The notes under the pieces: generated by a model | Seen by the model: the letters and a program-made list of their open reading frames with translations, nothing else | Told to the model about the DNA's origin: nothing | Databases searched by the model: none | Translations under genes and position numbers: made by a program | Source of the DNA: an uncultured Planctomycetia bacterium | Lineage (GTDB): Bacteria; Omnitrophota; Gorgyraeia; 1-14-0-20-64-10 | Assembly (NCBI GenBank): GCA_964597545.1 | Contig: CAZQXN010000001.1 | Coordinates: 69,655 to 133,654 of the forward strand | DNA length: 64,000 nt | Reading direction: 5' to 3' | Part shown: in pieces, positions 1,712-37,925 of the stretch | Position numbering within the stretch: the stretch's first letter is position 1 | Layout: the number at the start of each line of letters is the position of its first letter

Positions 1712-1736
1712 AGAAACGCTTCCCGCTGAATGCTTG

Positions 1737-1763
1737 TACGAAAGGGTCTGACCCCTTCGTACA
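1737..1763. repeat. Hairpin built on GGGTCTGACCCC, the reverse orientation of the GGGGTCAGACCCC repeat family; lies in the atpF-atpE intergenic spacer
   Basis: The sequence gtacgaaagggtctgaccccttcgtac is a near-perfect inverted repeat. The same 13-mer core recurs in tandem pairs inside era. Confidence 0.5.
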
Positions 1764-1768
1764 AATGT

Positions 1769-2014: not shown

Positions 2015-2037
2015 GGTGTAGCCTCCTCTCTGAAATC

Positions 2038-2085
2038 GGTACCGGGTACACTTGCTAACAGCTGTGGATAACTGTACCCGGTACC
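2038..2085. repeat. Dispersed palindromic element, copy A (GGTACCGGGTACA - 22-nt loop - TGTACCCGGTACC), in the atpB-atpE intergenic region
   Basis: A perfect 13-bp inverted repeat. Related copies occur at 15818-15848 and 21826-21866, and their loop sequences are related (ctgtggataac versus ctgttgataag). Confidence 0.65.
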
Positions 2086-2091
2086 GGGGTT

Positions 2092-5787: not shown

Positions 5788-5925
5788 AGGACCTAAGTAT
5801 CACCACTTCTGTCGGACCCGTCAATACCTATCCATTCTGGATTCCCCCTGCTCCGTACGTTAATATACATAAAGTTGGTTATTTTCCTTGTTTTTTACCC
5901 CCTTTATAGGCCATACTTTCCTTAT

Positions 5926-8900
5926 ATGGTACATCATACGATGACACGCCCATTGGCCTTCCTGCTGGCCCTCCTGATTGGTTTGCCTGCCCCTGCTCTC
6001 CTGGGCAGCCAGGCACTGGCTGCGGAGCATGGTGCGGCTTCCTCTAGCCGCAGCCATCATCTGCGCCCTTCCATTGAAGAGCGGGTGGAGGCTGATCTCG
6101 CCTCCGGCCTGGAGGAGGGGGCTGAGGATCTCGCAACCATTCTTGAGGTGCCGACAATCCAGCAGCTGAGCGCAATCCCCCTCGAAAGAATCGGAGAGGC
6201 CTATCTGCTGGATCCCAGACCGACAACATCCGATTTGAAAGATCAATTTGAGTCTGCCCAGCGGGAGCTCTGGTCGGTTGGATTCAAGCACCGGGAGGCC
6301 CCTCATCTTGTCGTCGGCGTGGGCAGAGAGATTAAAGCGTCGGGGATAACCCATTTCTTGGGCAAGCTGTATTCACGGACAAGACCGACCTCTGTGAGGA
6401 TGCTTCACAAACATCCCGTTCGCTCAGCAATCCCGTCGCACAAGGATTTCAGCGGACTCAAGGAGTGGCGTAAGCGATATGGAAAAAGCGTTCGGCGGCA
6501 GCGCAATTGGATCAACGGCGCAGACAACGGCATCCAGCGCTTTGTGGAGTACGGACACCGGCGCTTGTGGCGCATATTCTCATCCAAGAAGCTACAGGCG
6601 CGGATCTGGAGGGGCGGTCCCAAGAAACCCGCCGAAGCATTCTTCATCCCGGGCACCGATCGATGGCATGTCAGCGACATCAGAAATCACTCTTTGCCGG
6701 GAACCGACCAGGAAGGACACTCCTACTTCTTCAGCCTGGTGGATACGCCGGGCGTTCAGCGGGTTGAATTCAACGACCATCAAGGACGCTGGGCAAGCTG
6801 CAGTGCGAGCGACACCTGGGAAGAGCTACTTGAGTCACAGGGTTACACCAGGCCAGCCTACTCCGGCCTGGAGGAGGAGTGGGTGGAGCGTATCCGTACA
6901 GCAACCCAGCAGTGGCAAGCCAAGGGTTGGAAGCTTTATGACCCTGAGGAGCTCTCCTCAGCTTTTGCCAAGATTGCCGCAAAGCTCGGGTCGGGTTTGG
7001 AGAAAACCCAAGCCTTGGACGCGCAGGATACCAGGCGTTTCATCTGGGAGCGCCGTCAAGAATTCATGGTGGCCTTCTCGCATCTGGCCGAGGCGCTGCA
7101 TCTGCCCCCTGAAAACAATCCGCTAAGCGTCATCGCACTCACCCCTGCACGCGGCAAGTCCCCACCAAAACAAGCTGTGTTGGATCTACCCTATGGTGAA
7201 GGGGTGCTCAGGGCGACGATCCATTTCCAGAACCCTTCCCAAACTCCCAGAACCAAATTCCAGTTTCAGATTCGGGATGCAGCGGGCACCGCCCGGCGTC
7301 TGGGTGAGATGCGCATGGGAGCTGACAAGGAACGGCGCGACACCCTTCCGCTGCTTCACATTGACGTGGTAGATCCGTTGCGCCCAAGAACACCTCACGG
7401 TGAAAAGAGGAAATGGATCTGGCACCTGGGTATCGATTGGGCCTTCACGCAGCAAGATGGCATTCAAGAGAAGCTCATCGCCTACAAGACATTCCAGGAT
7501 AATCTCGGCCAACGGGTGAGACAACTGAGCAGGCGCCCCACAAGGGACACTACCGCTGCTTCCGGCCAAGAAGAGCCAATCCTCTCCCTGCCTGGTGCAG
7601 TACAAGTACCGCTTGCAGATCTTCGCCTGGCTGAAAGAATTGAGGCACACACAGGGGTTGCCGGGATTGATCCTGTCCGGACAGCGCTGAAGCAATTGCC
7701 GAATTCGCTCGTTCTGGCGGTGGTCGGCTCTGCCTTCTTGAGTCCAGGCGAGGCGATTGCCGATCTGGACCTGGCAGTCTATGACACCGCAGAGGATGGC
7801 GCAGGGGTGTGGGAATTACTGGACAGGCTTGAAGATTGCTTGGGCCCATTGGGTGAGGTTACGCGCAGCCCGGCAGCCGGAGATGAGAAGGCGTGGACAG
7901 ACCCCTATACCCTGAGTGTCGAGGATGTGCGAGGCGGAGGAGAGAGTTTCCAGGTGGATATCTTTGCCCTTCCCATGAGTTTATTGCGCACCAACCCGAT
8001 TGTGGATGGCCTAGACGCCTTATTCTACGTCGGGGGATTCAATCCCCTCTTCCCGGTCTATGGGGTTCAAAGCAGTCAAGCGGCAGAGCAATTCGTTGAG
8101 ATTGCTGCAGCAATTCCAGAGACCACCCTGGTTGGCAATCTCACACAATGGAAGCAAGCGCTCCTGGAGGATGCGCAGATGCGTTTGAGGTTCGGCGAGT
8201 CCGAAGCAGAGGCCATCCAAAAAGTGCGCCGACGAGCCCGTACCGTTTTGTATGCCCTAGACAGCAATGAGGTCCCGGCACCAGATGCACTTCCAGGGAA
8301 CCAAAAAGAGCTTGGCGAATTGCTAAGAACCCTGCAGACCCGGCAGGGTGATTTCGTAGAGCGGGTGCGGGCAATCCGTCTCGCCTCCGGCCTGGAGGAG
8401 GGAATAGAGTTGGCTACTGTGCCGATCCCGCGAAGCGCCGATGAGACCGACGCGTACGTTAACCGGCTCCATAGAACACGAGTGGTTATCGGAGATGCCC
8501 TCCGCATTCCCTATGACCCTTCCTTTCCGGAAACGGTGGCAGAACGGCACCACCTTTCGGTGATCCGCCATCTGAACGACAATGCCTTCCTCCATTTCCT
8601 TGACAGGACCTCGATCGCCAATCCTCAGGCGCAATTTACCTTCTTCCTCACCCAAGGGGTGGTTGACGGCGCTCTGCGCTGGTTTCTGAATGTTCAATAC
8701 CAAGATAACAATCCAGAGGCGTGGGAACATCCCATCGAGAGCGCGGTGACGAAGTTAAGCGGTGGAAGCCAAAGGGATGGCGGCGGAGTGGGATTGTGGA
8801 CTGCTTACCAAGCAGTAGCGCAAATTCCTGATGCGGCCCTTATCGTTGAGGCTCGGGATGTAGACGGCCATCGGAAACGGCTGAAGTTTGTAAAGGCCTT

Positions 8901-11900
8901 AAGCAGCCCTGCTTCCTTGGAGATTCGTAATCCTGATGGGGGAACAGAAATCTTGGTCCGGCTTCCAATCCTCCCCTTGGAGATAAACCTTGGGGAGGCA
9001 GCAGAACAAACTCGAGAACTGTTGGCCGGCAGATTTGGGCAGGGGCTCTCCAGGGAAATGACCGAATCTACCATCACCCAAATCTTGCGGCACAGCCTTC
9101 TGCTGCGCGCTGTGCAGATAGGCTCAGGGGCTAGAGCGGTCCTGATTCAAGGAGAAGCTGCGCAAGAGGTGACCGGACAAGCGGTGGCAAGGGCTCTCGA
9201 CGCACTTCCAGGGTCTTCTGATGGCAATCGGTTTGTTATGCACATTGGCAGGCACCCTTCAGAAGGTCTGGCTGTATACATTGCTCCGCTGCGAGGTGAA
9301 TATCATGCCCTCAGTTCAGGAGAGGCTGTTGAGATCGCGGATCTGCTTCGACAGAGAGAGCCGACGGTAGCTTCCATTCGCTTTCCTGGGCAAGGGTCTC
9401 ATCTGGATGTTCCGCTCGGAGCGCTCAGCCGAGAGTTGATTGCGGCGAGTGTCGATCGGATTCTCCAGGGCGGCAATGGCGTCATCCAGGTGGTGCCCTT
9501 TGAGCTTGGCGAAACAGATAGGCTCGCCATTGAAGTCTTATCAACCTCCGGCCAGGAGGAGAAGCGCCCCGCCCTAGGGCAGCTTACCAAACAGCTGCGT
9601 CAAATTCACAGACCCGGTTCCACGTGGACCCCTTCACAGATTGTTGATGCAGTCCGAGCCGCCTCTGAGACAGAGGATTTTGAGCTAGAGTGGCTTGCTC
9701 CCGGACAGATCAACTCCCCTGCGCAAAGAAAGACCGCCTGGGGGAAGATCCTTCACGCCGCTTACAGTGCGGTCAACAGGGGAGGGCTGGATCCGCTCAC
9801 CTGGCGGAAGGTTCTGGAGCAAGCAGGGCTTGATCCGAATCAGGTCTATGGGCGCAAACGAAGATCGCGAAAAGGGGATGGGATAGCATCCCCGGTTGCC
9901 GTCCACCTCCATCCTCCTTTCAAGGATGGCAAGCCGAACCTGGAGGCGTTAGGGGAACCAAACCACACAGGTGTGCGACTGCCCCGCCGTCCTTGGTGGA
10001 AGGAACACGCTCCTGCTCGCGCTCTGTTCATGAACCTTGAAACAGCTGGGAGTTCAACTGGGCAAGCGATCGTTAATGCTTACGGCCCCTCCTACTCACT
10101 CCCGCTGCCCTACAACGAATCCAACCCGGACCGCGTGGTGGTGTTGGCAGATGTCCCTGAGCCGGATCAGATCCGCGTACTGGCCATCTACCACGCTCAA
10201 ACCTTAAAGCAACTCTACCCCACCGCCAATCAGATATGGATCTATCCTCGCTTCCACCTGCAAGGAGGAAAGCTCCGAGGAGATTCTTTCTTCTTAAGGG
10301 CTACAGAGAAGATCAAAGATACCTCCTGGGACAATCTGGCCGCACGGGGCCCGCAAGTCGCCCTGGCGCATAGCCGCATTGGCGTCGACTCTGGCAGTTC
10401 ATACGTCCACTGCAGGGGTATCCCGCGCCTCATTCCGTACCGTAAAGGGGTAACGCATTCAAATCCTATGCTGGTCATTGCTGATACGCGCGCAGAGGCT
10501 GAAGCACCACCCATTGCCATCTATAACAACCAGGGGGATCAAGTTGCTCCTCACTGGGAAGATGCGTCGGTTCTGGAATTTGATGCGGTCGAGCTGGCAT
10601 CGCAGCTGCTGCGCCAACTGGCAGGCGCCTCCAATCTACTGCAAGGATCCGGCAGCGAACGAACTGTGCAACATCTCGACGTCAGCCAGCTGCTCGGCGG
10701 AACACCGGCTGCCATTGCCTTCCGTGATGACAGCGAGGACGGCTTAAGGCGGCGCCTGGAAGTGGCGCTGGCGGTAGCACTTGACCCCTGGAAACCTGCT
10801 CTTTATGATCCGGCTCGTGGGCAATATCTGCCGGCCTGGGAGGCGGGCGAACCCTTAAGGGAAGCGGGAATTGCCTCTATTCAAATTACGGTTCCACCTC
10901 GACCGGAACAGCCGGAAACCGCCTGGTTGGTTGTTCCGAGCAACGGTACGGCGGGGCTGCCGGCTTACGAGGCTGATGCGTTTAGAGGGTTTCATCCGAA
11001 TCAAGCGCAAAAGCTTCCCGCCGACACAACCCACGTCATCACGCGGCCCCTCACCAGGGAAGCCCTCTCCAGAGAGGTTGTGATTCCGTTGCACTACAAC
11101 GAGCGCGCAACCAGCGTTGTGGCGCTGCTTTCCCGGGAAGCTGGGGTCAGTACGGGAGAACGCATTCCAGCAGGAAAGAATACTCGGCTCTTCTTTGAGC
11201 CGACACTTCAATTGGATCACTGGGTAGGCGAAGAGGATAACGGCAGGCCGGCTCTGGTGTTGTGGTCGCATCCCTGGCCTGGTGATACCGTTCCAGACAG
11301 CTTCACCATACCCACCATTGATCTACATCCCGATCAAACCTTTTCACTTACCCTAAGACAGCTGTTTCATGCAGCACTGCTCGGCCACACAGCAGCAGCG
11401 CACCTGAATGTCTCAGCCCTCTGGACCTTCTTAGACAGCGAAAATCAGCCGCTGTTGGCCGCTGCTATCGGCCCGGAGCGCACTGCCGGCCAGGAGGAGG
11501 CTGATACCCTCGCAGGGGTCAGCACCCGCAGTGTGGTGTCGACTTACTTTGATCCGCCATTTTACGAGCACGGAACGCTCAAGGAAGTCACAGCAGATTC
11601 AGTTTGGGAATTCACAAATTTGCCGCCTGCCTTCTGGGAAACCGCCCGAGAGAGAGCCCAGAAGCATGTTGTACTCCGCGGCGTGCGCTCGATCGACACC
11701 AATGGGCAAGCGCACTTTGCAGCCACAACAGCACAAAGGAAAACCGGCCGCTATCCCACCGCAGTGCCTTACGGCGCAGATGTTGCATTTACGGTGGCGT
11801 TTAACATGCAGCATCCCCTTCTGGGGATTCCCGAGAAAGCTTTTCACAACGGAATCCAAGTGTACCCGGCAGCAAACCATGTCGAGATGTATCTGCATTT

Positions 11901-14900
11901 CGAGGTACGCCATGGCAAGCTGGTGCCTGAAGCCTCCTTCCTGTTTAAAGCAACTGAGCGATCGATTAAGGGGGTTTGGGATCTCCCTGAAGTTTTGGAG
12001 GCAAGCTCAGTGGCGTTGGCAAACGTTTCAACACTTACGAGGCCAATCCGAAACAAGCCCAATGTATCGTTTCGGTACCGCACAAAGCGTTTCACCATTT
12101 CGGTGCCGAATGGGGAATCCGCTCCACAGCGTGTTCTGATCCTCGGCAATCCCAAGAGACCGGATGGAGATCCCCCGGAAATCGTCCACGATATGAAAAC
12201 AGGCCGAGAGGTTTGGCCCACCTGGGGGGCAGTCCCCGCGCAAACCCTGGCCGACGCCTTAGAGCGATACCACGATGAGGAGGTGGCCAGTCAGTTTCGG
12301 CGCCCTTACGACCCCCGCTACTTCAACGAGTTGCTCCAGCAGGCGCAGCGAAGTTTTCCGCAGCCTACTGAGGGGGAACGTATTGTGTTCGATCTGCTAC
12401 AAGCGGCCGCCCGAGCTGCTCGGGCGGCTCAAGGGAACAATCCTCAGCACATCGAGGACTTTTTCAGCACCAGCGCCGACCGAATCCAACAAAGGGAGCC
12501 AATCAGAGTCAACGGCGGCCTGGAGGAGACTGGAAAATTTGATTTGATACGGGCAGAGGAACCGATTCCGCCCTTCCGGCTGCCGGAGTTGCCTGATGGG
12601 TTCCGGGTAAGCGAAGGGACCTTTCCTCTGGATCCCTCAACAGCCATGTTCAGCACCTTGATTCGAGAGCACCCGGAGCTGTTTCAAGGCATGGTCCTGG
12701 ACCTTGGAACCGGAAGCGGAGCTTTGGCCATTCAACTGGCCCGCCAGGGCGCCACTGTGGTGGGTATAGACAAATTAAGAGGAGCCATCGACGATGCGCG
12801 CCACAACCTCTCCCTAGAATCACCAGAGGTGCAGGCCCGGGTCACCTTCGGAGTCAGCGATCTATACGAGAATCTTCCTCAGATCACCGGGGAAGACAGT
12901 CCTCAATTCGACGTGGTGATTTACAACAACGGTATTCGCTTAGAGAAGGTCGCCCAAATCATCCCTCGAGATGCGATGTTGAAGGCCGGGGAGGCAGGGG
13001 AAGAGGTGGCCCGGGCCGTCAGCGGGTTGGACCAGGTGCTCACTCCAAATGGCAGAAGCTTTTTCCTGGGGGGTTCGGATCGCAATCTCGTCAACCTTTT
13101 CGGGTGGGGCCATTTTGAGGAGGCAAAACCAGAGGGGTGGAGGGTGCACCCCACAACATACAAGAAAAGCATGGCGCGCATCGTAAGGCAGGTGTTGATC
13201 TTCCGGGTGGCACCCCCGGGCGTTCCGGAATCTGCCGAGGTGGTGGCCGAGCCGAGCCTTCTCAATGTCCTCTTCCTTCCGGAGCGAAGGTTTGAAGTCC
13301 CGGCCGGCCAGGAGGAGAGACGGGAGATTGAGCTGGATACGATACCGCTTCAAGAAGCCGGCTCGAGAGAGACTGATGCGCATACACCCCTCTTCGACCC
13401 CCTGAATAGACCGTTCCAAGACCCTTTAAGTCCCTTTCATCCAATCCGCATTGACATGGGACCGATCCTCACGAATCTAGCAGACAACGCCAGAGAGCAT
13501 TTCCTGGAGCGCTTCCCGGATGTTGCGAACAAGACGGCTCAACTCAAACTTTCTGTTGCTGAACGAGATGCTGGGGATCGGTCCCTCATCATCCGCTACC
13601 AGGACAACAATCCGCATCCCTGGGAAATTCCGATTGACGAGGCGGTCCGAGGCTGGGGTGAGAGCAGAAAAGAACTTTCATGGGGAATAGGAGAGGGCTT
13701 GACAGGATCTTATAGAAGGACAATGAAGCTGGGTGGTCGCTTCACCGTGGAGGGGATGGACCCGAACGAAGGGCGCACCCGTCTGATCTACGCCGAGCCT
13801 GACCAAGAGCCTGCACCGGAAGATCGTCGCTACCAGAGCGATGGGACAGAGATCGTAGCTGAGCTTCCGATTCAAGCTCCAGATCAGTCCCTTGAAGCGC
13901 TTGCCGAATCCTTCCGTCAGAGCCTGGCCTCCGGCCAGGAGGGGCGTTCTGACGAATGGCGCCTCAGGGATAAAAAGGTTTCTGGGGGTCCGGCGATTCG
14001 GTGGCGGCCTCTCACCAATACGCCTGAGATGGTAAGTCGGTCGGAGCTAGAGCACGCCCAGCGGCGCGCTTACGACGAACATATTTTTGACCACCTCCCA
14101 AAGGATCTGGTACCCGCCCTTTCTGGTGGCATCTCTGGATTGCTGGCTCAGTTTGAGCAAGAAAACCGAGCAAGCGGCAAACCCTTCGCTTGGTGGGATG
14201 GGGCAGGCGGCATCGGCACGGCACTCCATCAGGCACGCGGCAGCGGCCATTATCCACACTTGGTACCTGTCCTTGTCGATCTTGTCAACTGGAAAGAAGA
14301 AGAGCTACCCCAGAAAGCAAGAGGGTGGCTCCGTCAGATGGCGCCGATTTGGGGGGTGGATTACCAAGATTTCTGGTCTAAGAAAGGTGTTGGGTTTATT
14401 TCGGGGGATCTTTCGACGCTTTATATTCCGCCAGAAGAAGCATCTTCCATCCGCCTTTTTACAATCATCGGATCGCTGGGTTTCTTTGATAATCCTTTGG
14501 GTGCCCTGCTAAACGTCTATAATCAACTCCCGGATGACGCCATCCTCCTAGCACCCTTATTCATCTCGATGGAAGACCCTCGGCGCCCTGAGCCAGAGGA
14601 GGCCGTCGTTGACTTCTATCGGGACGTGGTGGTTCCTGATCTTAAAGCGCATGGTGTTCAAGTCGATTTCAAGAAGACCAATCAGATGGAAGAGGCGGCC
14701 GTTGCTCAGGGACTCGGCGCGGGCATTCCGCAATTCCAGGCCGGATTCGTGTTCGTTAAGACGCCTGGATCAATCAAGCTGCTCCTTACGCCTAAAGTAC
14801 GCACCTTCCCGCAGAAGACAACCCGTGACGTTCTAGCGAAGGTCGTTCATTATGAGGGGGATCTTGAGAACCCCTTCGCTTACCATCCTCCTACCTCCGG

Positions 14901-15360
14901 CCTGGAGGAGGCGGTTGTGTGGGAATCAACGGTGTTTCGGGGGCAATTCCCGCAACTGGCAGACCAGATTCCAGCAAACGCCACTCATCTTTTGGGGGTG
15001 CCCCTCGACGGTGCGGTCACGCTGTATCGGCCTGAGACCTTGGCCGGAGGGCTGGAGGAACGAATTCGAGTAGAAGCAGAGCATTTCCCTGGTGTCGTCA
15101 TCCGGGCACAGCCGATTCCGCCGGCCGAGCGCAGCGTTCAGCGCCCTGCAGTTTTTGTGCTGGATACCCTCTTGGAGCTTAAGCTCCCCTACGAGCCCAC
15201 TCCTGCTGTGCACCACCAACTGGGCCAAGCGCTCCCGCCGCTGTTGAGGCTTATTGCCATGGCTTTAGCAGGTCGGACCGATGTCGTTGCTGCCTGGGTT
15301 GTCGGCCAGGTGGTTGAGGAAGATGGCCGGCAATACTTTGTCCTGGCGGTTCAACTGTAA
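5926..15360 (+). CDS. Giant protein of about 3,145 aa with a predicted signal peptide; NTase-like motif, two GHKL-like ATPase-like segments, two SAM-MTase-like segments and an internally duplicated module; function unknown
   Basis: One stop-free frame runs from 5875 to 15360 (9.5 kb). The first in-frame ATGs are 5926 (MVHHTMTRPLAFLLALLIGLPAPALLGSQALAAE) and 5941; the ORF-track start at 5875 is a TTG. The N-terminus looks like a signal peptide. The motifs I read are: VVGSAFLSPGEAIADLDLAVYD (hG[GS]x9-13DhD, about 7710-7790); LNDNAFLHF...YQDNNPEAWE...GGVGLW (about 8560-8900) and LADNAREHF...YQDNNPHPWE...GGRFTVE (about 13470-13800), which are GHKL N-box/G-box-like; VLDLGTGSGALAI...DVVIYN (about 12690-13000) and WWDGAGGIGTAL...VDLVNW (about 14190-14300), which are MTase motif I/II-like; and the duplication FFLRATEKIKDTSWDNL versus FLFKATERSIKGVWDLP (about 10290 and 11940). 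Confidence 0.85.
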   Translation: MVHHTMTRPLAFLLALLIGLPAPALLGSQALAAEHGAASSSRSHHLRPSIEERVEADLASGLEEGAEDLATILEVPTIQQLSAIPLERIGEAYLLDPRPTTSDLKDQFESAQRELWSVGFKHREAPHLVVGVGREIKASGITHFLGKLYSRTRPTSVRMLHKHPVRSAIPSHKDFSGLKEWRKRYGKSVRRQRNWINGADNGIQRFVEYGHRRLWRIFSSKKLQARIWRGGPKKPAEAFFIPGTDRWHVSDIRNHSLPGTDQEGHSYFFSLVDTPGVQRVEFNDHQGRWASCSASDTWEELLESQGYTRPAYSGLEEEWVERIRTATQQWQAKGWKLYDPEELSSAFAKIAAKLGSGLEKTQALDAQDTRRFIWERRQEFMVAFSHLAEALHLPPENNPLSVIALTPARGKSPPKQAVLDLPYGEGVLRATIHFQNPSQTPRTKFQFQIRDAAGTARRLGEMRMGADKERRDTLPLLHIDVVDPLRPRTPHGEKRKWIWHLGIDWAFTQQDGIQEKLIAYKTFQDNLGQRVRQLSRRPTRDTTAASGQEEPILSLPGAVQVPLADLRLAERIEAHTGVAGIDPVRTALKQLPNSLVLAVVGSAFLSPGEAIADLDLAVYDTAEDGAGVWELLDRLEDCLGPLGEVTRSPAAGDEKAWTDPYTLSVEDVRGGGESFQVDIFALPMSLLRTNPIVDGLDALFYVGGFNPLFPVYGVQSSQAAEQFVEIAAAIPETTLVGNLTQWKQALLEDAQMRLRFGESEAEAIQKVRRRARTVLYALDSNEVPAPDALPGNQKELGELLRTLQTRQGDFVERVRAIRLASGLEEGIELATVPIPRSADETDAYVNRLHRTRVVIGDALRIPYDPSFPETVAERHHLSVIRHLNDNAFLHFLDRTSIANPQAQFTFFLTQGVVDGALRWFLNVQYQDNNPEAWEHPIESAVTKLSGGSQRDGGGVGLWTAYQAVAQIPDAALIVEARDVDGHRKRLKFVKALSSPASLEIRNPDGGTEILVRLPILPLEINLGEAAEQTRELLAGRFGQGLSREMTESTITQILRHSLLLRAVQIGSGARAVLIQGEAAQEVTGQAVARALDALPGSSDGNRFVMHIGRHPSEGLAVYIAPLRGEYHALSSGEAVEIADLLRQREPTVASIRFPGQGSHLDVPLGALSRELIAASVDRILQGGNGVIQVVPFELGETDRLAIEVLSTSGQEEKRPALGQLTKQLRQIHRPGSTWTPSQIVDAVRAASETEDFELEWLAPGQINSPAQRKTAWGKILHAAYSAVNRGGLDPLTWRKVLEQAGLDPNQVYGRKRRSRKGDGIASPVAVHLHPPFKDGKPNLEALGEPNHTGVRLPRRPWWKEHAPARALFMNLETAGSSTGQAIVNAYGPSYSLPLPYNESNPDRVVVLADVPEPDQIRVLAIYHAQTLKQLYPTANQIWIYPRFHLQGGKLRGDSFFLRATEKIKDTSWDNLAARGPQVALAHSRIGVDSGSSYVHCRGIPRLIPYRKGVTHSNPMLVIADTRAEAEAPPIAIYNNQGDQVAPHWEDASVLEFDAVELASQLLRQLAGASNLLQGSGSERTVQHLDVSQLLGGTPAAIAFRDDSEDGLRRRLEVALAVALDPWKPALYDPARGQYLPAWEAGEPLREAGIASIQITVPPRPEQPETAWLVVPSNGTAGLPAYEADAFRGFHPNQAQKLPADTTHVITRPLTREALSREVVIPLHYNERATSVVALLSREAGVSTGERIPAGKNTRLFFEPTLQLDHWVGEEDNGRPALVLWSHPWPGDTVPDSFTIPTIDLHPDQTFSLTLRQLFHAALLGHTAAAHLNVSALWTFLDSENQPLLAAAIGPERTAGQEEADTLAGVSTRSVVSTYFDPPFYEHGTLKEVTADSVWEFTNLPPAFWETARERAQKHVVLRGVRSIDTNGQAHFAATTAQRKTGRYPTAVPYGADVAFTVAFNMQHPLLGIPEKAFHNGIQVYPAANHVEMYLHFEVRHGKLVPEASFLFKATERSIKGVWDLPEVLEASSVALANVSTLTRPIRNKPNVSFRYRTKRFTISVPNGESAPQRVLILGNPKRPDGDPPEIVHDMKTGREVWPTWGAVPAQTLADALERYHDEEVASQFRRPYDPRYFNELLQQAQRSFPQPTEGERIVFDLLQAAARAARAAQGNNPQHIEDFFSTSADRIQQREPIRVNGGLEETGKFDLIRAEEPIPPFRLPELPDGFRVSEGTFPLDPSTAMFSTLIREHPELFQGMVLDLGTGSGALAIQLARQGATVVGIDKLRGAIDDARHNLSLESPEVQARVTFGVSDLYENLPQITGEDSPQFDVVIYNNGIRLEKVAQIIPRDAMLKAGEAGEEVARAVSGLDQVLTPNGRSFFLGGSDRNLVNLFGWGHFEEAKPEGWRVHPTTYKKSMARIVRQVLIFRVAPPGVPESAEVVAEPSLLNVLFLPERRFEVPAGQEERREIELDTIPLQEAGSRETDAHTPLFDPLNRPFQDPLSPFHPIRIDMGPILTNLADNAREHFLERFPDVANKTAQLKLSVAERDAGDRSLIIRYQDNNPHPWEIPIDEAVRGWGESRKELSWGIGEGLTGSYRRTMKLGGRFTVEGMDPNEGRTRLIYAEPDQEPAPEDRRYQSDGTEIVAELPIQAPDQSLEALAESFRQSLASGQEGRSDEWRLRDKKVSGGPAIRWRPLTNTPEMVSRSELEHAQRRAYDEHIFDHLPKDLVPALSGGISGLLAQFEQENRASGKPFAWWDGAGGIGTALHQARGSGHYPHLVPVLVDLVNWKEEELPQKARGWLRQMAPIWGVDYQDFWSKKGVGFISGDLSTLYIPPEEASSIRLFTIIGSLGFFDNPLGALLNVYNQLPDDAILLAPLFISMEDPRRPEPEEAVVDFYRDVVVPDLKAHGVQVDFKKTNQMEEAAVAQGLGAGIPQFQAGFVFVKTPGSIKLLLTPKVRTFPQKTTRDVLAKVVHYEGDLENPFAYHPPTSGLEEAVVWESTVFRGQFPQLADQIPANATHLLGVPLDGAVTLYRPETLAGGLEERIRVEAEHFPGVVIRAQPIPPAERSVQRPAVFVLDTLLELKLPYEPTPAVHHQLGQALPPLLRLIAMALAGRTDVVAAWVVGQVVEEDGRQYFVLAVQL

Positions 15361-15407: not shown

Positions 15408-16445
15408 TTGTTCTCAGAAATGAGCTCATCTAACCCAAAAGGGGTCAGACCCCCTGAAGGGGGTCAGACCCCTGCGTCCCACCGCTGTGGATCGGTCGTG
15501 ATCCTGGGCCGCCCCAATGTGGGTAAGTCCACCCTTTTGAACCGCCTCCTGGGCGAGAAGATCGCGATTGTCTCGCATAAGCCGGAGACCACCCGGGAGC
15601 AACTCTTAGGCATCCTGACCCTGGCCGATGCTCAAATCCTTTTCTATGACACCCCTGGGATTTATCGAGCCCCCTCCACCCTCTTGGGCAAGCACCAGGT
15701 GCAGGCAGCTCGGGATGCCCTGGAGGCCGCGGATGTCATGCTGCTCATGACCGAAGCGCAGGCCGGGTTGACCGATGAGGATAAGCAGATTGTGGGGCTG
15801 CTGAAAACCAGAACAACGGTACCGGGTACAGCAAGTGTACCCGGTACCGAAACCGAGGGGTTGCCGGTGTTGCTGGCAATCAACAAGGCTGACCGGGTCA
15901 AGAAGTCGCTCATTCTGCCGCAGATCGAGGAAGCAAATCATCTTTATCCATTCCGGGAAATTGTGCCGATATCCGCCAGGGACGGAGACAACACCGAGCC
16001 CCTCTTAAAGGCGCTGGTCCAAGCATTGCCTGTTGGACCAGCCCTGTATCCTGCGGATGAGCTGACCGATAAGCCCGCACGTACTCTGGTCCAGGAGCTC
16101 ATCCGCGAGAAGACCTTGCTCTTTACCCACGAAGAGGTGCCTTATGCGGTGGCGGTCCTCGTTGAGGAATGGCGAGAGGGAGAAAAGCCAAAAGGGGTCA
16201 GACCCCTTAAGAAGAAGGGGTCAGACCCCGTCTACATTCGGGCAACGATCTATGTGGAGCGGGATTCGCAGAAGGGGATCTTGATCGGCAAGGGGGGAGG
16301 ACTCCTAAAGAAGATCGGGGAGGCAGCCCGCAAAGAGATTGAGGCGCTGTTGAAAGGGCCAATCTTTCTTGATCTTTGGATCAAGGTTGCCAAGAACTGG
16401 CGCAAGGACCCCCAGATGCTAAGGAGGCTGGGATATGGTGCATGA
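15408..16445 (+). CDS. era: GTPase Era, carrying three in-frame palindromic-repeat insertions
   Basis: The G1 motif ([16 protein letters not shown]), DTPG, NKAD and a C-terminal KH domain (VAVLVEEW...[37 protein letters not shown]...LDLWIKV) are all present. Relative to E. coli Era there are extra segments at the N-terminus, before the G4 motif and in the KH domain, and these coincide with the repeat elements. Confidence 0.85.
15441..15472 (+). repeat. Tandem pair of GGGGTCAGACCCC palindromes inside the era 5' coding region
   Basis: ccaaaaGGGGTCAGACCCCctgaaGGGGGTCAGACCCC, which encodes [14 protein letters not shown] in frame. Confidence 0.7.
15818..15848 (+). repeat. Dispersed palindromic element, copy B (GGTACCGGGTACA gcaag TGTACCCGGTACC), inserted in frame in era
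   Basis: A perfect 13-bp inverted repeat with a 5-nt loop. It encodes [12 protein letters not shown] in the loop between the G3 and G4 motifs of Era (E. coli has ...LREGKAPVILAVNK... here). Confidence 0.75.
16198..16239 (+). repeat. Second tandem pair of GGGGTCAGACCCC palindromes, inside the era KH domain
   Basis: ccaaaaGGGGTCAGACCCCttaagaagaaGGGGTCAGACCCC, which encodes [14 protein letters not shown] in frame. The 19-nt lead-in ccaaaaggggtcagacccc is identical to the one at 15435-15453. Confidence 0.75.
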
Positions 16446-16496
16446 CAAAAACAAAAAAGGGTCAGGCACCTTTTCACCTATTCGTGAGGTAGCGCA

Positions 16497-18053
16497 ATGA
16501 AAAGGAGCCAGACCCTGTATCCTTGGTGGGTGAAGCGGGATTTTGACGGTTTCTTCGGGTTGTTCCTGGATAACCTTATTCAGCTGATGCTGATTGTCAC
16601 CCTCTGCGGGGGGCTGCTGGGCTTTCCGGCGGAGCTCATCCTCAAAACCATCCTTCCTGGTGCGGCCATCTCCATTTTGCTCGGCAACATCGCTTATGCC
16701 TTCCAGGCCAAGCGCTTGGCCCGCAAGACCGGGCGGGATGACATCACAGCCCTTCCCTATGGGATCAATACGGTCTCTCTCTTTGGTTATGTCTTCTTTG
16801 TGATGCTGCCGGTAGTGCGGGCCACCGGGAACCCGGTCTTGGCCTGGCAGGTGGGATTGGTGGCCTGTTTGGGATCAGCTGTAATTGAGTTTGTCGGGGC
16901 CTTTGTGACCGAGTGGGTGAGACGCATCACTCCGCGTGCCGCGATGCTGAGTACTTTGGCCGGCATTGCGATCACCTTTATCTCGATGGAGTTTGTCTTT
17001 AGGATCTTTGAGTATCCGGCGCTCAGCATAATCCCGTTGGGGATTCTGCTCCTCTCTTATGCCGGGCGGGTGCGCCTGCCGCTGGGGCTGCCCGGTGGAT
17101 TGGCAGCGCTGCTGGTGGGCGTAGTGCTTGGATTCGTCTTTCGAAAGCTCGGGATGTCAGAGTCGGTGCCACTGCCTTCTGCTTTAAGTTTCACCGGCAT
17201 CCGCTGGGTTGTCGCAGATCTAGCGGCCGGGCTTAGAAGCGGGGCACTCATTGATTACCTCTCGATCATCATCCCGATGGGGCTGTTCAATGTGTTGGGC
17301 TCACTGCAAAACCTAGAATCTGCAGAGGCCGCCGGTGACAAGTACCCCACCCGAAGTTCCCTGGTGATCAACGGGGTAGGCTCCGGGATTGCAGCATGTC
17401 TCGGAAGCTGTTTTCCCACGACCATCTACATTGGACATCCCGGCTGGAAGGCGATGGGGGCAAGGACCGGTTACTCCATTGCCAATGGGGTGGCGATCTC
17501 GGCAATCTGTCTCACCGGTGCGATGGGCTGGATCTTCCGTTGGATCCCCTTTGAAGCAGGAATTGGAATTCTCCTCTGGATCGGCATCATCATCATTGCC
17601 CAGGCCTTCCAAGAAACCCCCAAGCCCCATGCCCTGGCAGTCGCAGTAGGGCTCTTTCCGGCGCTGGCCGCCTGGGGGCTCAACCTCGTTGAGGCCACCC
17701 TGCGTGCGGCCGGCACCTCTGTAAACGCCTTGGGCACCTCGGCCTTTGCCGGGCATCTCGGGATTGCCGGGATGATTGCCTTGGAGCGGGGCTTTATCTT
17801 TACCTCGATGCTCTGGGCAGCCTTCATGGTGGCCTTGATTGAGCATAAATTCCGGCAGGCAGCCAGCTGGATGATTGCCCTTTCCTTCCTCTCCTGGGTG
17901 GGGATGATCCATGCCTATCGAATCACTGAGGCCGGCATCATGAATCACTTCGGTTTCTGCGCCGCCCCGGTCTTTGCAGCGGCCTACCTCGGGGTGGCCT
18001 CCATCTGCTTCGGGATGCACCTGCGCATCCACTATTTTTCTGCCCGGCACTGA
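16497..18053 (+). CDS. Polytopic membrane permease, possibly of the NCS2/AzgA-like nucleobase transporter family
   Basis: The 518-aa ORF has about 12-14 predicted TM helices. The family assignment is a weak guess from the N-terminal pattern (FDGFFGLFLDNLIQLMLIV...). Confidence 0.4.
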   Translation: MKRSQTLYPWWVKRDFDGFFGLFLDNLIQLMLIVTLCGGLLGFPAELILKTILPGAAISILLGNIAYAFQAKRLARKTGRDDITALPYGINTVSLFGYVFFVMLPVVRATGNPVLAWQVGLVACLGSAVIEFVGAFVTEWVRRITPRAAMLSTLAGIAITFISMEFVFRIFEYPALSIIPLGILLLSYAGRVRLPLGLPGGLAALLVGVVLGFVFRKLGMSESVPLPSALSFTGIRWVVADLAAGLRSGALIDYLSIIIPMGLFNVLGSLQNLESAEAAGDKYPTRSSLVINGVGSGIAACLGSCFPTTIYIGHPGWKAMGARTGYSIANGVAISAICLTGAMGWIFRWIPFEAGIGILLWIGIIIIAQAFQETPKPHALAVAVGLFPALAAWGLNLVEATLRAAGTSVNALGTSAFAGHLGIAGMIALERGFIFTSMLWAAFMVALIEHKFRQAASWMIALSFLSWVGMIHAYRITEAGIMNHFGFCAAPVFAAAYLGVASICFGMHLRIHYFSARH

Positions 18054-18102: not shown

Positions 18103-18413
18103 GAGCTATTGATTCCGGGCGGAGAATGTGGCATGGTTGAAGTGAAGGCCGATAAGGGCAAACTCGTCGAAAGGCGGGGACGCAAAACCACAGACCTAAC
18201 CCGACTCCGGCGCCCCGATGTCAACGGCCTGGCCCACAAATCTTAAAGGGCAGGGGCATCCGATGGGCGAGGGGGTCGACAAGGTGGCTGGGTTGCCGAT
18301 CACCGGGCCAAAAAATAAAGGTCCCTACTCCCGGCTTCGCGGTCGGGCACACCGGGACGGGCCGTTCAGGTGATTGTACGGTAGCCTTTATCGGCTTGGC
18401 TTCATACAACTTA

Positions 18414-20564: not shown

Positions 20565-20590
20565 AGTCGGTACCCAAAGGAGAGCGTTGA

Positions 20591-21825: not shown

Positions 21826-21866
21826 CCGGTACCGGGTACGCCTGTTGATAAGTGTACCCGGTACCG
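21826..21866. repeat. Dispersed palindromic element, copy C (CCGGTACCGGGTAC - loop - GTACCCGGTACC), between the dehydrogenase and the hydratase
   Basis: It begins 3 nt after the TAA at 21821-21823. The stem is 12-13 bp, and the loop gcctgttgataagt is related to the loop of copy A. Confidence 0.65.
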
Positions 21867-26891: not shown

Positions 26892-27003
26892 TCCCACCAC
26901 CTGACTTAGCCCCCACGGGGCTGTCGAATCAGAGATTCGACCCGTCTTGGACGGGTCAGGCGGAAGGGGTGCATCCGCCCAAGACAGAAAGGGAGGTGGT
27001 GGG

Positions 27004-27477
27004 GTGATCCGGATTCTTGCGCTGGGAGCGGTTTGTCTGGCGGTATTCATCCTAATTGTAGTCCTGCGCGAGGAACGCCTCCAAATCAAGGGTAAGGTGC
27101 CGTTGGGGCGCCTGCGCAAGCTGTGGTTTCGCAATGAACGCAGAATCGCCCCCCGCTACCGGCTGGATTGGCCGGTTCGGTACCGCCGAACAGACAAGGT
27201 GTCGAACCTACCGGCCACCACCCGGGATGTCAGCCAAACCGGCGCCGGACTGATGGTGGAAGAGCGCATGGAGGTGGGCTCCGAGGTTGAGCTGCAGTTT
27301 ACCCTGCCCACCCATCCACAGCCCATCTGGGTGATTTCAGAAATCATGTGGCAGAAAGAGGTTGCGCGCAATCCCAGCACCCCGGACAACAAGCGGGTCT
27401 TTTACATCGGTGTGCACTTTAAGGGGCTTAGCCCCAAGATAGAAAAGGAGCTGACAAAATCACTTCGCCAGGAATGA
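27004..27477 (+). CDS. PilZ domain protein (putative c-di-GMP receptor) with an N-terminal TM helix
   Basis: RRIAPRYRLDWPVRY...TRDVSQTGAGL matches the PilZ RxxxR ... D/NxSxxG signature. I chose the GTG start at VIRILALGAV (TM helix); the ORF track starts at 26947. Confidence 0.55.
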   Translation: MIRILALGAVCLAVFILIVVLREERLQIKGKVPLGRLRKLWFRNERRIAPRYRLDWPVRYRRTDKVSNLPATTRDVSQTGAGLMVEERMEVGSEVELQFTLPTHPQPIWVISEIMWQKEVARNPSTPDNKRVFYIGVHFKGLSPKIEKELTKSLRQE

Positions 27478-28921: not shown

Positions 28922-29158
28922 AGCGATGAGGCAAGGAATGTTCAAGCAAATCAAGGTAATGCACATTTCGGTTTCGCAGTCGTGCGCGGCCAAGCAAGCC
29001 GCCTCATCGCTTTTCAGGGGGGAAACGCCCTCTGGTGGTTTCCCCCCTGGGATTCCCCCTTCCCAGGCCCGCTTTCAGCGGGAAGGTCTTGCAGGGGGCG
29101 ATTTCCCATCTCCCCCTGCATGCCCCTCTTCCGAAGGAAGGAGGCAACGCGGATAACC

Positions 29159-30319
29159 ATGAGTCAACCGTATGACGTGGTGGTGATCGGAGCAGGGCCG
29201 GCAGGGAGTGTCTGCAGTTATCTTACTGCCAAAGCGGGCCTGAAGACCCTGGTCCTTGAGGAGCACGCAGGAGCCGGGATGTTTGTCAATTGTACCGGCA
29301 TCATCGGGATGGAGGCCTTTAGGCACCTCAATCTCCCCACCACGCCGATCTTGGGCTCCCTCCAGCGCATCACCTTCTTCTCTCCCTCGGGCACCTCATT
29401 CCAGTACGATCCGGGCCAACCCCTGGCCCATGTGGTCAGCCGCCGCCAGTTCGATCAAGCGTTGGTGGAGTTGGCTGAATCTCAAGGTGCGCGCTTTAGG
29501 TACGGCTACCACGCGCGCTTAATCCGCGCAGATTCCGACGGGGTGGAGATACGACAGCAGGAAGAGGATGCAGAGCCCGTGACAGCACAGATGGCAGTTA
29601 TCGCCGCCGGGTTTGGCTCGAATCTCACAGCCCAAGTGGGCTTGGCCGCCCCCCGCCAAATCGTCTATGGGGCACAGGTCGAGGTGGAGATGGAGGGCTT
29701 AAGTGACGTTGAGATTTACTTAGGACGCAAGGTGGCTCCCGAGGCCTTTGCCTGGGCGGTACCCACAGAGGCGGGAAAGGCCCGGGTGGGACTCATTACC
29801 TCCAAGGAGGCCCCGCGCTATTTGAAGAACTTACTTCATCACCCCGCCATCCGAGAGCGCATCCGGACCCAGGAACCTAAGATGCTCTTAAGCCCCATCC
29901 CGGTGGAACCCATTGAGCAAAGCTACGCCGAGCGGGTCTTGGTGGTGGGGGAGGCGGCAGGCCAAGTTAAAACCACCACCCAAGGGGGAATCTACTACGG
30001 GATGCTGTGTGCGGCCATGGCCGCAGAAACCGCTGAGGAGGCGCTGCGCAGGAAGGATTTCCGGGAAGTGATCCTGCGCGGCTACCAAACTGCCTGGACG
30101 CGGTCCATCGGGGAGGAGCTTAAGATGGGCTCGGCCTTGCGTCAGCTTTTCGCGCGCCTCAGCGACGAACAGGTCGACGCCTTTGTAGAGCTGGGAACGC
30201 GCAAGGATGTCTTAGGATTGGTCAAGCGCCTGGCGCAATTCGACTGGCACCGGGAGCTGATTCAGACTTCACTTAAACTTCCGGCGCTTCGAGAAGTGGT
30301 TCGAGGAGGGCTTTGGTAA
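29159..30319 (+). CDS. Geranylgeranyl reductase family FAD-dependent oxidoreductase
   Basis: YDVVVIGAGPAGSVCSYLTAKAGLKTLVLEE (FAD-binding GxGxxG) with the overall GGR-like layout. I chose the start at MSQPYDVVV; the longer upstream ORF lacks support. Confidence 0.7.
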   Translation: MSQPYDVVVIGAGPAGSVCSYLTAKAGLKTLVLEEHAGAGMFVNCTGIIGMEAFRHLNLPTTPILGSLQRITFFSPSGTSFQYDPGQPLAHVVSRRQFDQALVELAESQGARFRYGYHARLIRADSDGVEIRQQEEDAEPVTAQMAVIAAGFGSNLTAQVGLAAPRQIVYGAQVEVEMEGLSDVEIYLGRKVAPEAFAWAVPTEAGKARVGLITSKEAPRYLKNLLHHPAIRERIRTQEPKMLLSPIPVEPIEQSYAERVLVVGEAAGQVKTTTQGGIYYGMLCAAMAAETAEEALRRKDFREVILRGYQTAWTRSIGEELKMGSALRQLFARLSDEQVDAFVELGTRKDVLGLVKRLAQFDWHRELIQTSLKLPALREVVRGGLW

Positions 30320-30321
30320 TC

Positions 30322-30732
30322 ATGTTTCGTCATCGATTTGGGCAGCGCTACAAGTACCAGAATACGCGCCAGTATTTGAGGCTGCCGATCTCATGGCCGG
30401 TCAAGTGCGAACCCAAGCAAGCCGAGGAGGGTCGGCACGTCACCGCCACGCAGGATGTCAGCGCCGGGGGTATGCGCATGATTGTCCGGGAGGAGGTTCC
30501 GGTCGATTCCGAGGTCGTCCTGGAGATTCATGTGCCGCCGCTGGAGCGCTCCATCCAAGCCGTGGGCCGTGTGCTGCGCTGCCAACCGAGCCGCAGGGGT
30601 TTTGAGCTGGGGGTGCGCTTTGAGAAGATCGACCCGAGAGATCAGGTAGCGCTCAATGAAGCGGTGGAGCAATTTTACAGTCCCCGCAAACGGGTTCGCC
30701 ACCAACAGTCGTGGTGGCGAAAGATCACTTAA
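30322..30732 (+). CDS. PilZ domain protein (putative c-di-GMP receptor)
   Basis: RQYLRLPISWPVKC...TQDVSAGGMRM, i.e. the PilZ signatures. Confidence 0.55.
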   Translation: MFRHRFGQRYKYQNTRQYLRLPISWPVKCEPKQAEEGRHVTATQDVSAGGMRMIVREEVPVDSEVVLEIHVPPLERSIQAVGRVLRCQPSRRGFELGVRFEKIDPRDQVALNEAVEQFYSPRKRVRHQQSWWRKIT

Positions 30733-37909: not shown

Positions 37910-37925
37910 GGGGACCGTGTAACCC

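Follow-up and report, generated by a model that had tools for sequence, protein, structure and literature searches.

Short palindromic repeats lying in frame within protein-coding genes have been described in two main settings. Repetitive extragenic palindromes (REPs) and REP dimers, which carry GTAG or CGTC tags, are sometimes found in frame inside genes, where they encode 20–30 amino acids and may occur twice in one gene; the highest number of intragenic REPs was reported in Opitutus terrae, and the insertions are spread over many genes, notably including uvrA/B and recBCD (Di Nocera et al. 2013, PMC3733652). In Rickettsia, the Rickettsia palindromic elements (RPEs) occur in frame in conserved proteins and also between genes (Ogata et al. 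2000, as summarised in PMC10969869 and PMC3733652). Here, we analysed a 64,000-nt stretch of DNA (the window; all coordinates are window coordinates unless another contig is named) in which the era gene, encoding the GTPase Era, carries three in-frame insertions of short, hairpin-forming palindromic elements. The names on homologues suggest that the host belongs to Candidatus Omnitrophota. What is new is the repeated occurrence of such insertions in the same Era loops, which form a hotspot across a phylum-level clade.

Palindromic elements in the era gene

The open reading frame (ORF) at 15408–16445 on the plus strand is uninterrupted, and its translation likely starts at ATG 15420, yielding the 341-aa protein P0001. 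This protein scored 335 bits against the NCBIfam Era equivalog NF000908 (cutoff, 237) and 227 bits against TIGR00436 (cutoff, 116), and it could be aligned over its full length with solved Era structures. It contains the G1 (GxxxxGKS), G3 (DTPG), and G4 (NKxD) motifs and a C-terminal type-II KH domain, and with its score above the equivalog cutoff, the product of 15420–16445 is a bona fide Era, the ribosome-assembly GTPase. The coding sequence and the three elements within it are as follows.

15420–16445, plus strand: era coding sequence; the ORF caller placed the start at TTG 15408, and ATG 15420 fits the 341-aa database protein P0001
15435–15476, plus strand: N-terminal element, CCAAAA + GGGGTCAGACCCC + CTGAAG + GGGGTCAGACCCC + TGCG; 42 nt, 14 codons
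15817–15849, plus strand: pre-G4 loop element, CGGTACCGGGTACA-GCAAG-TGTACCCGGTACCG; a perfect 14-bp stem that codes for most of a 13-residue segment
16188–16229, plus strand: KH-domain loop element, CCAAAA + GGGGTCAGACCCC + TTAAGAAGAA + GGGGTCAGACCCC; encodes a 14-residue peptide

The initial annotation of this DNA had named two families, the GGGGTCAGACCCC family and a GGTACCGGGTACA/TGTACCCGGTACC hairpin family (GGTACCGGGTAC, GGTACC-type), and had claimed that Era carries three in-frame palindromic insertions, which the intact frame, the equivalog score, and the three hairpins confirmed. The first tandem GGGGTCAGACCCC pair spans 15441–15472, as had been reported, with copies at 15441 and 15460; the GGTACCGGGTACA/TGTACCCGGTACC hairpin lies in the loop before G4 as a perfect 14-bp stem at 15817–15849; and both tandem pairs indeed begin with the same 19-mer, CCAAAAGGGGTCAGACCCC, which is exact at 15435 and 16188. 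The second tandem pair and its peptide are also real, although it is located at 16194–16229, with the 19-mer starting at 16188, and not at 16198–16239. Beyond these corrected coordinates, our analysis added to that annotation the clade-wide recurrence at both loops, a fourth element 3′ of era, and the finding that only a single, imperfect copy of GGGGTCAGACCCC lies outside the gene.

Four exact copies of GGGGTCAGACCCC were present in the 64-kb window, all within era (at 15441, 15460, 16194, and 16217), and the only copy outside era, at 1743–1755, had one mismatch. When both strands were searched with up to one mismatch, nine matches were obtained against an expectation of 0.17, and none of 100 shuffles reached nine. 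Inverted pairs of GGTACCGGGTACA were located at 2038/2073, 15818/15836, and 21828/21853 (0.01 expected). The N-terminal, pre-G4, and KH elements folded into hairpins of −29.5 (z −4.2), −28 (z −7.7), and −27.6 kcal/mol (z −5.4), respectively, and no shuffled sequence was as stable as these. In a 60-nt sliding scan of era, troughs of z −5 to −7 appeared only at the three insert sites, with z around 0 in the remainder of the gene. Both GGGGTCAGACCCC pairs in the window have the centre bases A...A, which place an A-A mismatch in the stem. A terminator reading was rejected, as the intragenic hairpins are not followed by a U-tract, and the Rfam search at the gathering threshold gave no match at any element. 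Two further perfect inverted repeats, at 16013–16042 and 16053–16106 (10- and 11-bp stems; z −3.3 and −1.4), lie in conserved parts of era and may be due to chance.

Elements outside era in the window

Members of the two families, together with a third family, were also found outside era in the window.

16458–16516, plus strand: third-family hairpin, GGGTCAGGCACCTTTT ... AAAAGGAGCCAGACCC, with two exact arms, directly 3′ of era
1734–1764, minus strand: intergenic GGGGTCAGACCC(T) palindrome, a single copy with a GTACGAA/TTCGTAC arm extension, between the ATP synthase b and c genes
2037–2086, minus strand: intergenic GGTACCGGGTACA hairpin with a 14-bp stem and a 22-nt loop, between the ATP synthase c and a genes
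21827–21866, plus strand: intergenic GGTACCGGGTAC hairpin, between the 3-hydroxyacyl-CoA dehydrogenase (3HCDH) and enoyl-CoA hydratase (ECH) genes
20568–20574, plus strand: solo CGGTACC, between the patatin and 3HCDH genes

The strings GGGGTCWGACCCC, GGTACCNGGTACC, and GGGTCWGGCWCC represent the element families. Within the 64 kb, the GGTACCGGGTAC family occupies three loci, two of them intergenic; the GGGGTCAGACCCC family occupies three, of which one is intergenic and imperfect; and the third family occupies one. The earlier statement that the same families occur between genes is thus correct for 1734–1764, 2037–2086, and 21827–21866, with the restriction that the GGGGTCAGACCCC family contributes only the imperfect copy. 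The elements consist of 13–14-bp units, with pairs spanning 31–50 bp and stems of 13–15 bp, and the hairpins of the three intragenic elements and of the intergenic copies were all stable (−20.7 to −29.5 kcal/mol, z −4.2 to −7.7).

The intragenic and intergenic copies are related in both arms and loops. The 14-nt arms of the pre-G4 hairpin of era are identical to those of the 2037–2086 copy, and the arms of the 21827–21866 copy differ from both by one base. The loops of the era, 2037–2086, and 21827–21866 copies are also related (GCAAG, CAGCTGTTAGCAAG, and CCTGTTGATAAG); in minus-strand orientation, the 2037–2086 loop ends in GCAAG, which is the whole loop of the pre-G4 hairpin. Because intergenic copies measure 40, 46, and 50 nt, none of them a multiple of three, the preservation of the reading frame in era is a survivor filter and not a property of the elements. 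The third-family hairpin at 16458–16516 (−27 kcal/mol, z −5.6) overlaps the next gene, which encodes a 518-aa membrane protein: its 3′ arm forms the start codon and first codons (MKRSQTL). Restriction-site avoidance, or another restriction–modification explanation, was dropped because GGTACC is not under-represented (25 observed versus ~18 expected).

Position of the insertions in the Era protein

To locate the insertions in the Era fold, we used an AlphaFold2 (AF2) model of the window protein built with an input of 87 orthologues (mean predicted local distance difference test [pLDDT] score, 83.9), which had a template modelling (TM) score of 0.80, normalised to the target, against Aquifex Era (7c1o/3iev). 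In this model, the N-terminal element corresponds to the disordered N-terminus (residues 1–24). The pre-G4 element forms a loop at residues 137–153, between the helix at 123–136 and the strand at 154–159, and leads into NKxD. The KH element forms a loop at residues 258–274, between the KH-domain strands at 249–257 and 275–283. The pLDDT scores were ~56–70 in the three insert segments and >90 in the flanking regions, and both internal segments were gaps in the alignment to S. aureus and Aquifex Era. The three inserts are therefore in-frame, stop-free segments, located at low-confidence loops or the terminus of the model and missing from orthologues, in agreement with the initial annotation, which had assigned them to loops.

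As the frame of a conserved gene is intact across them, and era is essential in model bacteria, the two internal inserts are presumably translated. The N-terminal pair is probably translated as well, because the HRCG motif downstream of it is conserved with synonymous variation and the only later start codon is a GTG in β-strand 1; there is no in-frame start codon between the N-terminal element and HRCG. The possibility that this pair belongs to the 5′ untranslated region was judged unlikely, since the sole downstream in-frame start, the GTG at Val31, lies past the conserved HRCG.

Turnover of the elements between close relatives

The closest relative of the window is the JGI contig L004, and the same era, identical including its elements, was present in three independent JGI metagenome assemblies (L004, L005, and L006). 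Synteny is kept between the window and L004, five proteins downstream of era are 97–100% identical, and the 10 kb downstream of era has 93% nucleotide identity. The era gene of L004 lacks the 42-nt N-terminal element (MTTSQSHRCG versus MSSSN-(14 aa)-SHRCG in the window), which is also missing from every other lineage examined. It also lacks the GGGGTCAGACCCC pair at the KH site, and its pre-G4 element is larger, consisting of nested GGTACC(A/T)GGTACC units. Across 11 kb, all indels of at least 3 nt between the two represent the gain, loss, or remodelling of palindromic elements. The only gene touched by them is era; in the 10 kb downstream, all such indels are intergenic, and none falls in the five downstream genes. 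The window and L004 can thus be regarded as a natural experiment, in which this region differs only by the gain or loss of elements.

A 51-nt indel downstream of era corresponds to the third-family hairpin (16458–16516 in the window), which is missing in L004; there, 12 nt separate era from the next gene. A further indel, between the patatin and 3HCDH genes, reflects a 46-nt GGTACCWGGTACC element of L004 that is flanked by CGGTACC; the window has the solo CGGTACC at this spot (20568–20574) and thus shows an empty or excised site. In the 3HCDH–ECH hairpin, loop length differs between the two genomes, and the orthologous locus of L004 has an A/T-centre version. The copy in era of L004 and its intergenic copy share AATCGGTACCWGGTACC units and the spacer (AAAAGCGAAAAATC versus TAGAGCAAAAATC). 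All window copies have G/C at the centre of the 13-mer, whereas all copies of L004 have A/T there except for a truncated outer half-unit (GGGTACC) in era. The element copies are therefore homogenised within a genome, which points to a recent spread from a genome-specific master copy, gene conversion, or co-evolution with a sequence-specific protein. Homogenised centre bases are not expected from selection on era mRNA alone.

Immediately upstream of era, a giant 3161-aa ORF (5875–15360, plus strand) has a methyltransferase domain as its sole Pfam match (residues ~2250–2400) and, as judged by eye, many SGLEE/GQEE-like motif repeats. Its counterpart in L004 is 1759 aa long and ~80% identical in patches, in contrast to the 93% of the genes downstream of era. 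It contains a 23-nt perfect palindrome, GCCGCCCGAGCTGCTCGGGCGGC, at 12406–12428, which codes for AARAARAA.

Recurrence at the same Era loops across Omnitrophota

We compared ~85 Omnitrophota Era orthologues (87 proteins in the set used for peptide signatures), measuring loop spacings with regular-expression anchors on the retrieved proteins; more distant Era genes from contig scans (≤47% identity, full-length match) were used only as an outgroup. The spacing between G3 (DTPG) and G4 (NKxD) was 57–58 aa in 29 of 32 Era proteins from outside the clade, whereas it ranged from 55 to 84 aa within the clade (excluding two anomalous 36-aa regular-expression values) and was 73 aa in the window. Similarly, the spacing across the KH β-hairpin was 25–26 aa in 18 of 19 non-clade proteins, compared with 25–60 aa in the clade and 37 aa in the window. 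The pre-G4 and KH loops are thus hypervariable specifically in the Omnitrophota clade, by up to ~30 aa. Extra residues were missing at the pre-G4 site in about 12% of the orthologues and at the KH site in about 28%. Together with the absence of both GGGGTCAGACCCC pairs and the different GGTACC element in L004, the nearly fixed spacing outside the clade identifies the segments as lineage-specific insertions, as the initial annotation had proposed. Distant Era proteins with the same segments and no palindromic structure were not found, and the repeats are not unique to this gene.

The era DNA was compared in eleven lineages, comprising the window, L004, and nine others. In nine of the eleven, the extra DNA at the pre-G4 site was hairpin DNA belonging to several families; such hairpins were named in the window, L004, L007, L088, L090, L092, L093, and L094 (z −3.8 to −9.9 where computed). 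They were of GGTACCNGGTACC types in L004, L088, and L094, of GGGGACAGGCACC/GGGTCTGGCTC types in L007 and L092, and of other kinds in L090 and L093; the GGTACCNGGTACC family as a whole was present in era of four lineages. Perfect stems of 15–17 bp in L088 and 10 bp in L090 were observed. L090 carries hairpin inserts at both the pre-G4 and KH sites, whereas the near-identical L091 is cleanly empty at both (PKRSPEGEGV and EGVRGAKI). In L007, which has ~67% protein identity to the window and comes from an independent Logan assembly, GGGGTCAGACCCC-13 nt-GGGGTCTGACCCC occurs at the same KH position. The KH expansions in L004, L088, L089, and L092–L095, in contrast, are Pro/Ser/Gly-rich linkers with z around 0, which we read as decayed insertions.

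Peptide signatures of the palindromes (VPGT, GTGTF, GTGPF, GQSP..GTVP, and EKVPDPF) were frequent at the Era sites of the 87 proteins, and among 48 window genes, only era carried several of them. In an alignment of six lineages, gap columns accounted for 81 of 375 in era, compared with values from 1 of 261 (ECH) to 37 of 599 (AMP-binding) in the five neighbours. Almost all orthologues have A-rich CCN-AAR (Pro-Lys) codons before the pre-G4 site. Nearly every relative has a different gene upstream of era, encoding, for example, the giant methyltransferase protein, RHH-Fic, ParE, AAA_14/DUF4143, or a 957-aa protein. In L007, the 3HCDH gene also contains an in-frame palindromic element, GAAAAGGGACAGTCCCCATTCGGGGACAGTCCCTTTTC (L007 12999–13036), giving ~7 aa more than in five orthologues; Era is therefore not the sole gene hit in the clade.

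The GGGGTCAGACCCC pair in other contigs

The A...T version of the GGGGTCAGACCCC pair was found in 11 stretches of IMG/VR contigs, and the GGGGTC(A/T)GACCCC pair was found in unrelated contigs. In two phage-portal-like ORFs, identified by eye, GGGGTCAGACCCC..GGGGTCTGACCCC lies in frame (L097 2063–2104 and L102 2351–2380, both IMG/VR), and the pair is read in the same frames as in Era, yielding KGVRPLLDPQKGSDPF and SGVRPLSGSDP (GVRPL..GSDP). A copy read as GVRP must have a central A, because a central T would give GGG GTC TGA, a stop in frame 1. One 51-kb IMG/VR contig labelled a giant virus metagenome-assembled genome (MAG) contained six copies of the GGGGTCAGACCCC..GGGGTCTGACCCC pair. The GGTACC-type hairpin had no match in IMG/VR.

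Origin of the era insertions

We consider it probable that the insertions are REP-like dispersed palindromes, or resemble the REP doublets that form hairpins (REPINs), and that they were inserted into permissive loops of Era, are translated, and subsequently decay. At least three families of short, dispersed REP/REPIN-type palindromes would insert at many places in this genome, including era, and the era insertions would survive at three tolerant places: the N-terminus, the loop before NKxD (G4), and the KH β-hairpin loop. Only in-frame, stop-free copies would persist, adding 11–16 residues to the loops (e.g., GVRP, GSDP, GQTP, and VPGT). The elements would turn over rapidly by insertion, loss, replacement, and local copying, the copies within one genome would be kept alike, and old copies would lose the palindrome and leave low-complexity linkers. 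The loss of structure in the KH expansions is as expected for old insertions that are not under selection. Effects of the hairpins on era mRNA would be a by-product and not the cause of their presence. The mechanism of mobility, the translation of the inserts, and their neutrality are what we infer from these patterns.

Several observations weigh against this explanation. Three of the six window loci of the two initially named families fall in era, and four of the six indel events between the window and L004 lie in or beside it, a degree of clustering above what tolerance of the loops by itself would lead one to expect. For the GGGGTCAGACCCC family, the imperfect copy is the only one outside era in the window and all L007 copies are in era, so that its genome-wide dispersal is presumptive. 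When occupied and empty sites of the window and L004 were compared, no target-site duplication was convincing, with just a shared CGGTACC at the patatin–3HCDH site, and a scan of 44 window ORFs detected no transposase domain (RAYT/Y1 or other). The clustering on era may have been increased by local copying, as the N-terminal and KH pairs share the 19-mer and have similar spacers, or by the location of the gene on the border of a variable island. Another possible contributor is preferential insertion close to existing hairpins, which is known for REP clusters.

Other observations also fit selection for pairing, and an alternative is that selection acts on the hairpins as RNA or DNA structures within the coding sequence of era, where they would serve as entry sites for RNase III or another nuclease, as inter-domain pauses, or in feedback on the level of the GTPase, acquired convergently and with the peptide as the by-product. 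The recurrence of strong hairpins with unrelated sequences at the pre-G4 position in nine lineages is consistent with such selection, as are stems that remain perfect at divergences where synonymous sites are saturated and stem differences between the window and L004 that are paired changes (G..C versus A..T) with pairing kept. The events also cluster on era and not on its five neighbour genes, and the element downstream of era encloses the start codon of the next gene. However, the orthologues without extra residues (~12% at the pre-G4 site and ~28% at the KH site) and the L090–L091 pair, which differs by the presence of the inserts, count against a selected structure. Many KH expansions have no structure left, and the elements have neither a U-tract nor an Rfam family. 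Furthermore, the arms in era and intergenic copies from the same genome agree, down to the genome-specific centre bases, a pattern that selection on era mRNA alone would not produce. Regulation at the RNA level, which the initial annotation had offered as its alternative, is weakened by these arm matches, the empty orthologues, and the apparently decayed KH inserts, and we consider a selected structure unlikely. A related idea, which we find doubtful and rank behind it, is that the Era loops and N-terminus are a clade-wide landing pad, to which palindromes home as coding contexts or where hairpins are repeatedly recruited to control the Era level. Such homing could involve the A-rich CCN-AAR codons before the pre-G4 site, and control could operate through cleavage by a double-strand-specific RNase or through domain-wise translational pausing. 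If true, this would represent a class of palindromic elements adapted to coding sequences, with a function tied to ribosome assembly.

The loops might instead be intrinsically unstable, low-complexity linkers in which palindromes are made locally by template switching, hairpin-primed repair, or slippage. Several inserts are apparently unique and unmatched to other copies (both sites of L090, and L093), many KH inserts are non-palindromic Pro/Ser/Gly/Ala-rich linkers, and the 19-mer that the N-terminal and KH pairs have in common could have arisen by local copying. Nevertheless, the contigs with the seemingly unique inserts are only 2.8–5.8 kb long, too short to judge uniqueness, and purely local generation is contradicted wherever a contig is long enough to show other copies: in both the window and L004, arms and loop or spacer are common to the intragenic copies and to intergenic ones at distances of kilobases. 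The presence of the GGTACCNGGTACC family in era of four lineages and of the GGGGTC(A/T)GACCCC pair in unrelated contigs is likewise at odds with a local origin, which we regard as improbable and place below the landing pad. Assembly or sequencing artefacts of the MAG would be a scarcely credible explanation. Although the window derives from a single MAG contig and the exact P0001 was not traced to a contig in the look-up index, the L004, L005, and L006 era genes and their elements are identical in three independent JGI assemblies, the GGGGTCAGACCCC family recurs at the same KH site in the independent Logan assembly of L007, and all the inserts preserve the frame of an otherwise conserved gene.

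Other features of the window

At 48076–50310 (plus strand), a 744-aa GDP-mannose 4,6-dehydratase contains an intein with a LAGLIDADG homing-endonuclease domain (approximately residues 148–516), which constitutes another in-frame selfish insertion in a conserved enzyme. A c-di-GMP-I-GGC riboswitch aptamer (RF03167; 61.4 bits, gathering threshold 59) lies at 18148–18301 (plus strand), upstream of a cNMP-binding/patatin gene; an 81-nt insertion, which does not belong to a palindrome family, replaces the 5-nt terminal loop of one of its stems. PilZ-domain genes occur nearby at 26947–27477 and 30313–30732. Unrelated G/C-rich hairpins with 12- and 9-bp stems, at 29015–29049 and 29090–29120, lie in a ~250-nt spacer between a small ORF, HIT-family-like by eye, and an FAD-dependent oxidoreductase gene. 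They are inside the GTG-started ORF 28982–30319 as called, whose true start probably lies downstream of them. A large exopolysaccharide/glycan biosynthesis cluster occupies 32113–63844 and encodes Poly_export, a sugar transferase, a carbamoyltransferase, many GT4/GT2 glycosyltransferases, epimerases/dehydratases, and two tandem Wzz-GNVR tyrosine-kinase-type paralogues (35996–39872).

Comparison with known palindromic elements

A full-text literature search with the repeat sequences, and with Omnitrophota plus "palindromic", retrieved no relevant description of such repeats or of Era as a target, and Era was not found among the REP-decorated genes in the accessible portion of the supplementary text of PMC3733652. 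Like REPs, the elements described here are short GC-rich stem–loop palindromes, often in inverted doublets; REPs are 20–40 bp long, often occur in pairs folding into a longer hairpin, and lie mostly between co-directional or convergent genes, with a minority in frame inside genes (PMC3733652). In contrast to REPs, the three families end in CCAAAAGGGG.., (A/C/T)CGGTACC.., and AAAAAAGGGTC.., and no copy has a GTAG or CGTC tag at either end. No REP-associated tyrosine transposase (RAYT) or other tyrosine transposase was present among the scanned window ORFs, and one gene is hit three times, with the same loops affected across a whole clade. The elements share with REPINs and clusters of the bacterial interspersed mosaic element (BIME) type the arrangement of two palindromic units and a short spacer in one long hairpin, the homogeneity within a genome, and the clustering. 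REPINs are extragenic by definition, with each family tied to a RAYT gene. A true inverted doublet would be A...T, as in the L007 and IMG/VR copies, whereas the GGGGTCAGACCCC pairs of the window are A...A. The initial annotation had suggested tolerated REP/MITE-like insertions, MITEs being miniature inverted-repeat transposable elements. The tolerated, REP-like part is supported by the lineage specificity, the loop location, and the intergenic family copies, whereas the comparison with MITEs fails, because MITEs are 70–300 bp long with terminal inverted repeats and target-site duplications, and the elements here are too short and have no clear duplication.

Short, mobile, hairpin-forming inserts within protein-coding genes are also known from the GC-rich 'byp' elements of Magnusiomyces mitochondria and the coding gap of T4 gene 60, which ribosomes bypass. 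Those inserts break the frame or hold stops, whereas all inserts observed in this study have lengths divisible by three and lack stop codons, so that neither translational bypass nor splicing is needed, an argument that is partly circular in that only intact ORFs were retrieved. Together with intragenic REPs, the closest parallel is provided by the RPEs of Rickettsia, which are likewise selfish palindromes inserted in frame at surface positions compatible with the fold, with the same families found between genes. RPEs, however, are ~100–150 bp long and encode a conserved peptide of ~30–50 aa, whereas the elements here are 31–42 bp long, unrelated in sequence, and located in another phylum. In addition, most genes with an RPE carry a single one, and repeated insertion into one loop in many lineages is not known for these elements. 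The in-frame, fold-compatible insertion is shared with RPEs, and the length, the family peptide, and the restriction to Rickettsia are not; the era elements are an analogue of RPEs and not a member of that group.

In practical terms, the inserts make a common marker gene look more divergent than it is, and they leave peptide signatures that can be recognised in annotation (GVRP/GSDP, VPGT, GTGTF, and GQSP..GTVP). Dozens of orthologues show both loops at all stages, from empty sites through perfect hairpins to decayed linkers, which makes Era well suited to questions about the generation of protein-loop diversity by mobile palindromes, the effects of hairpins in an essential mRNA, and the mobiliser of tag-less REP-like repeats. 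By analogy, the insertions would be in-frame palindromic selfish DNA, a known kind whose earlier cases are the RPEs of Rickettsia and intragenic REPs. They extend selfish DNA inside protein-coding genes, previously described mainly in Rickettsia and a few REP-rich species, to the uncultured phylum Omnitrophota.

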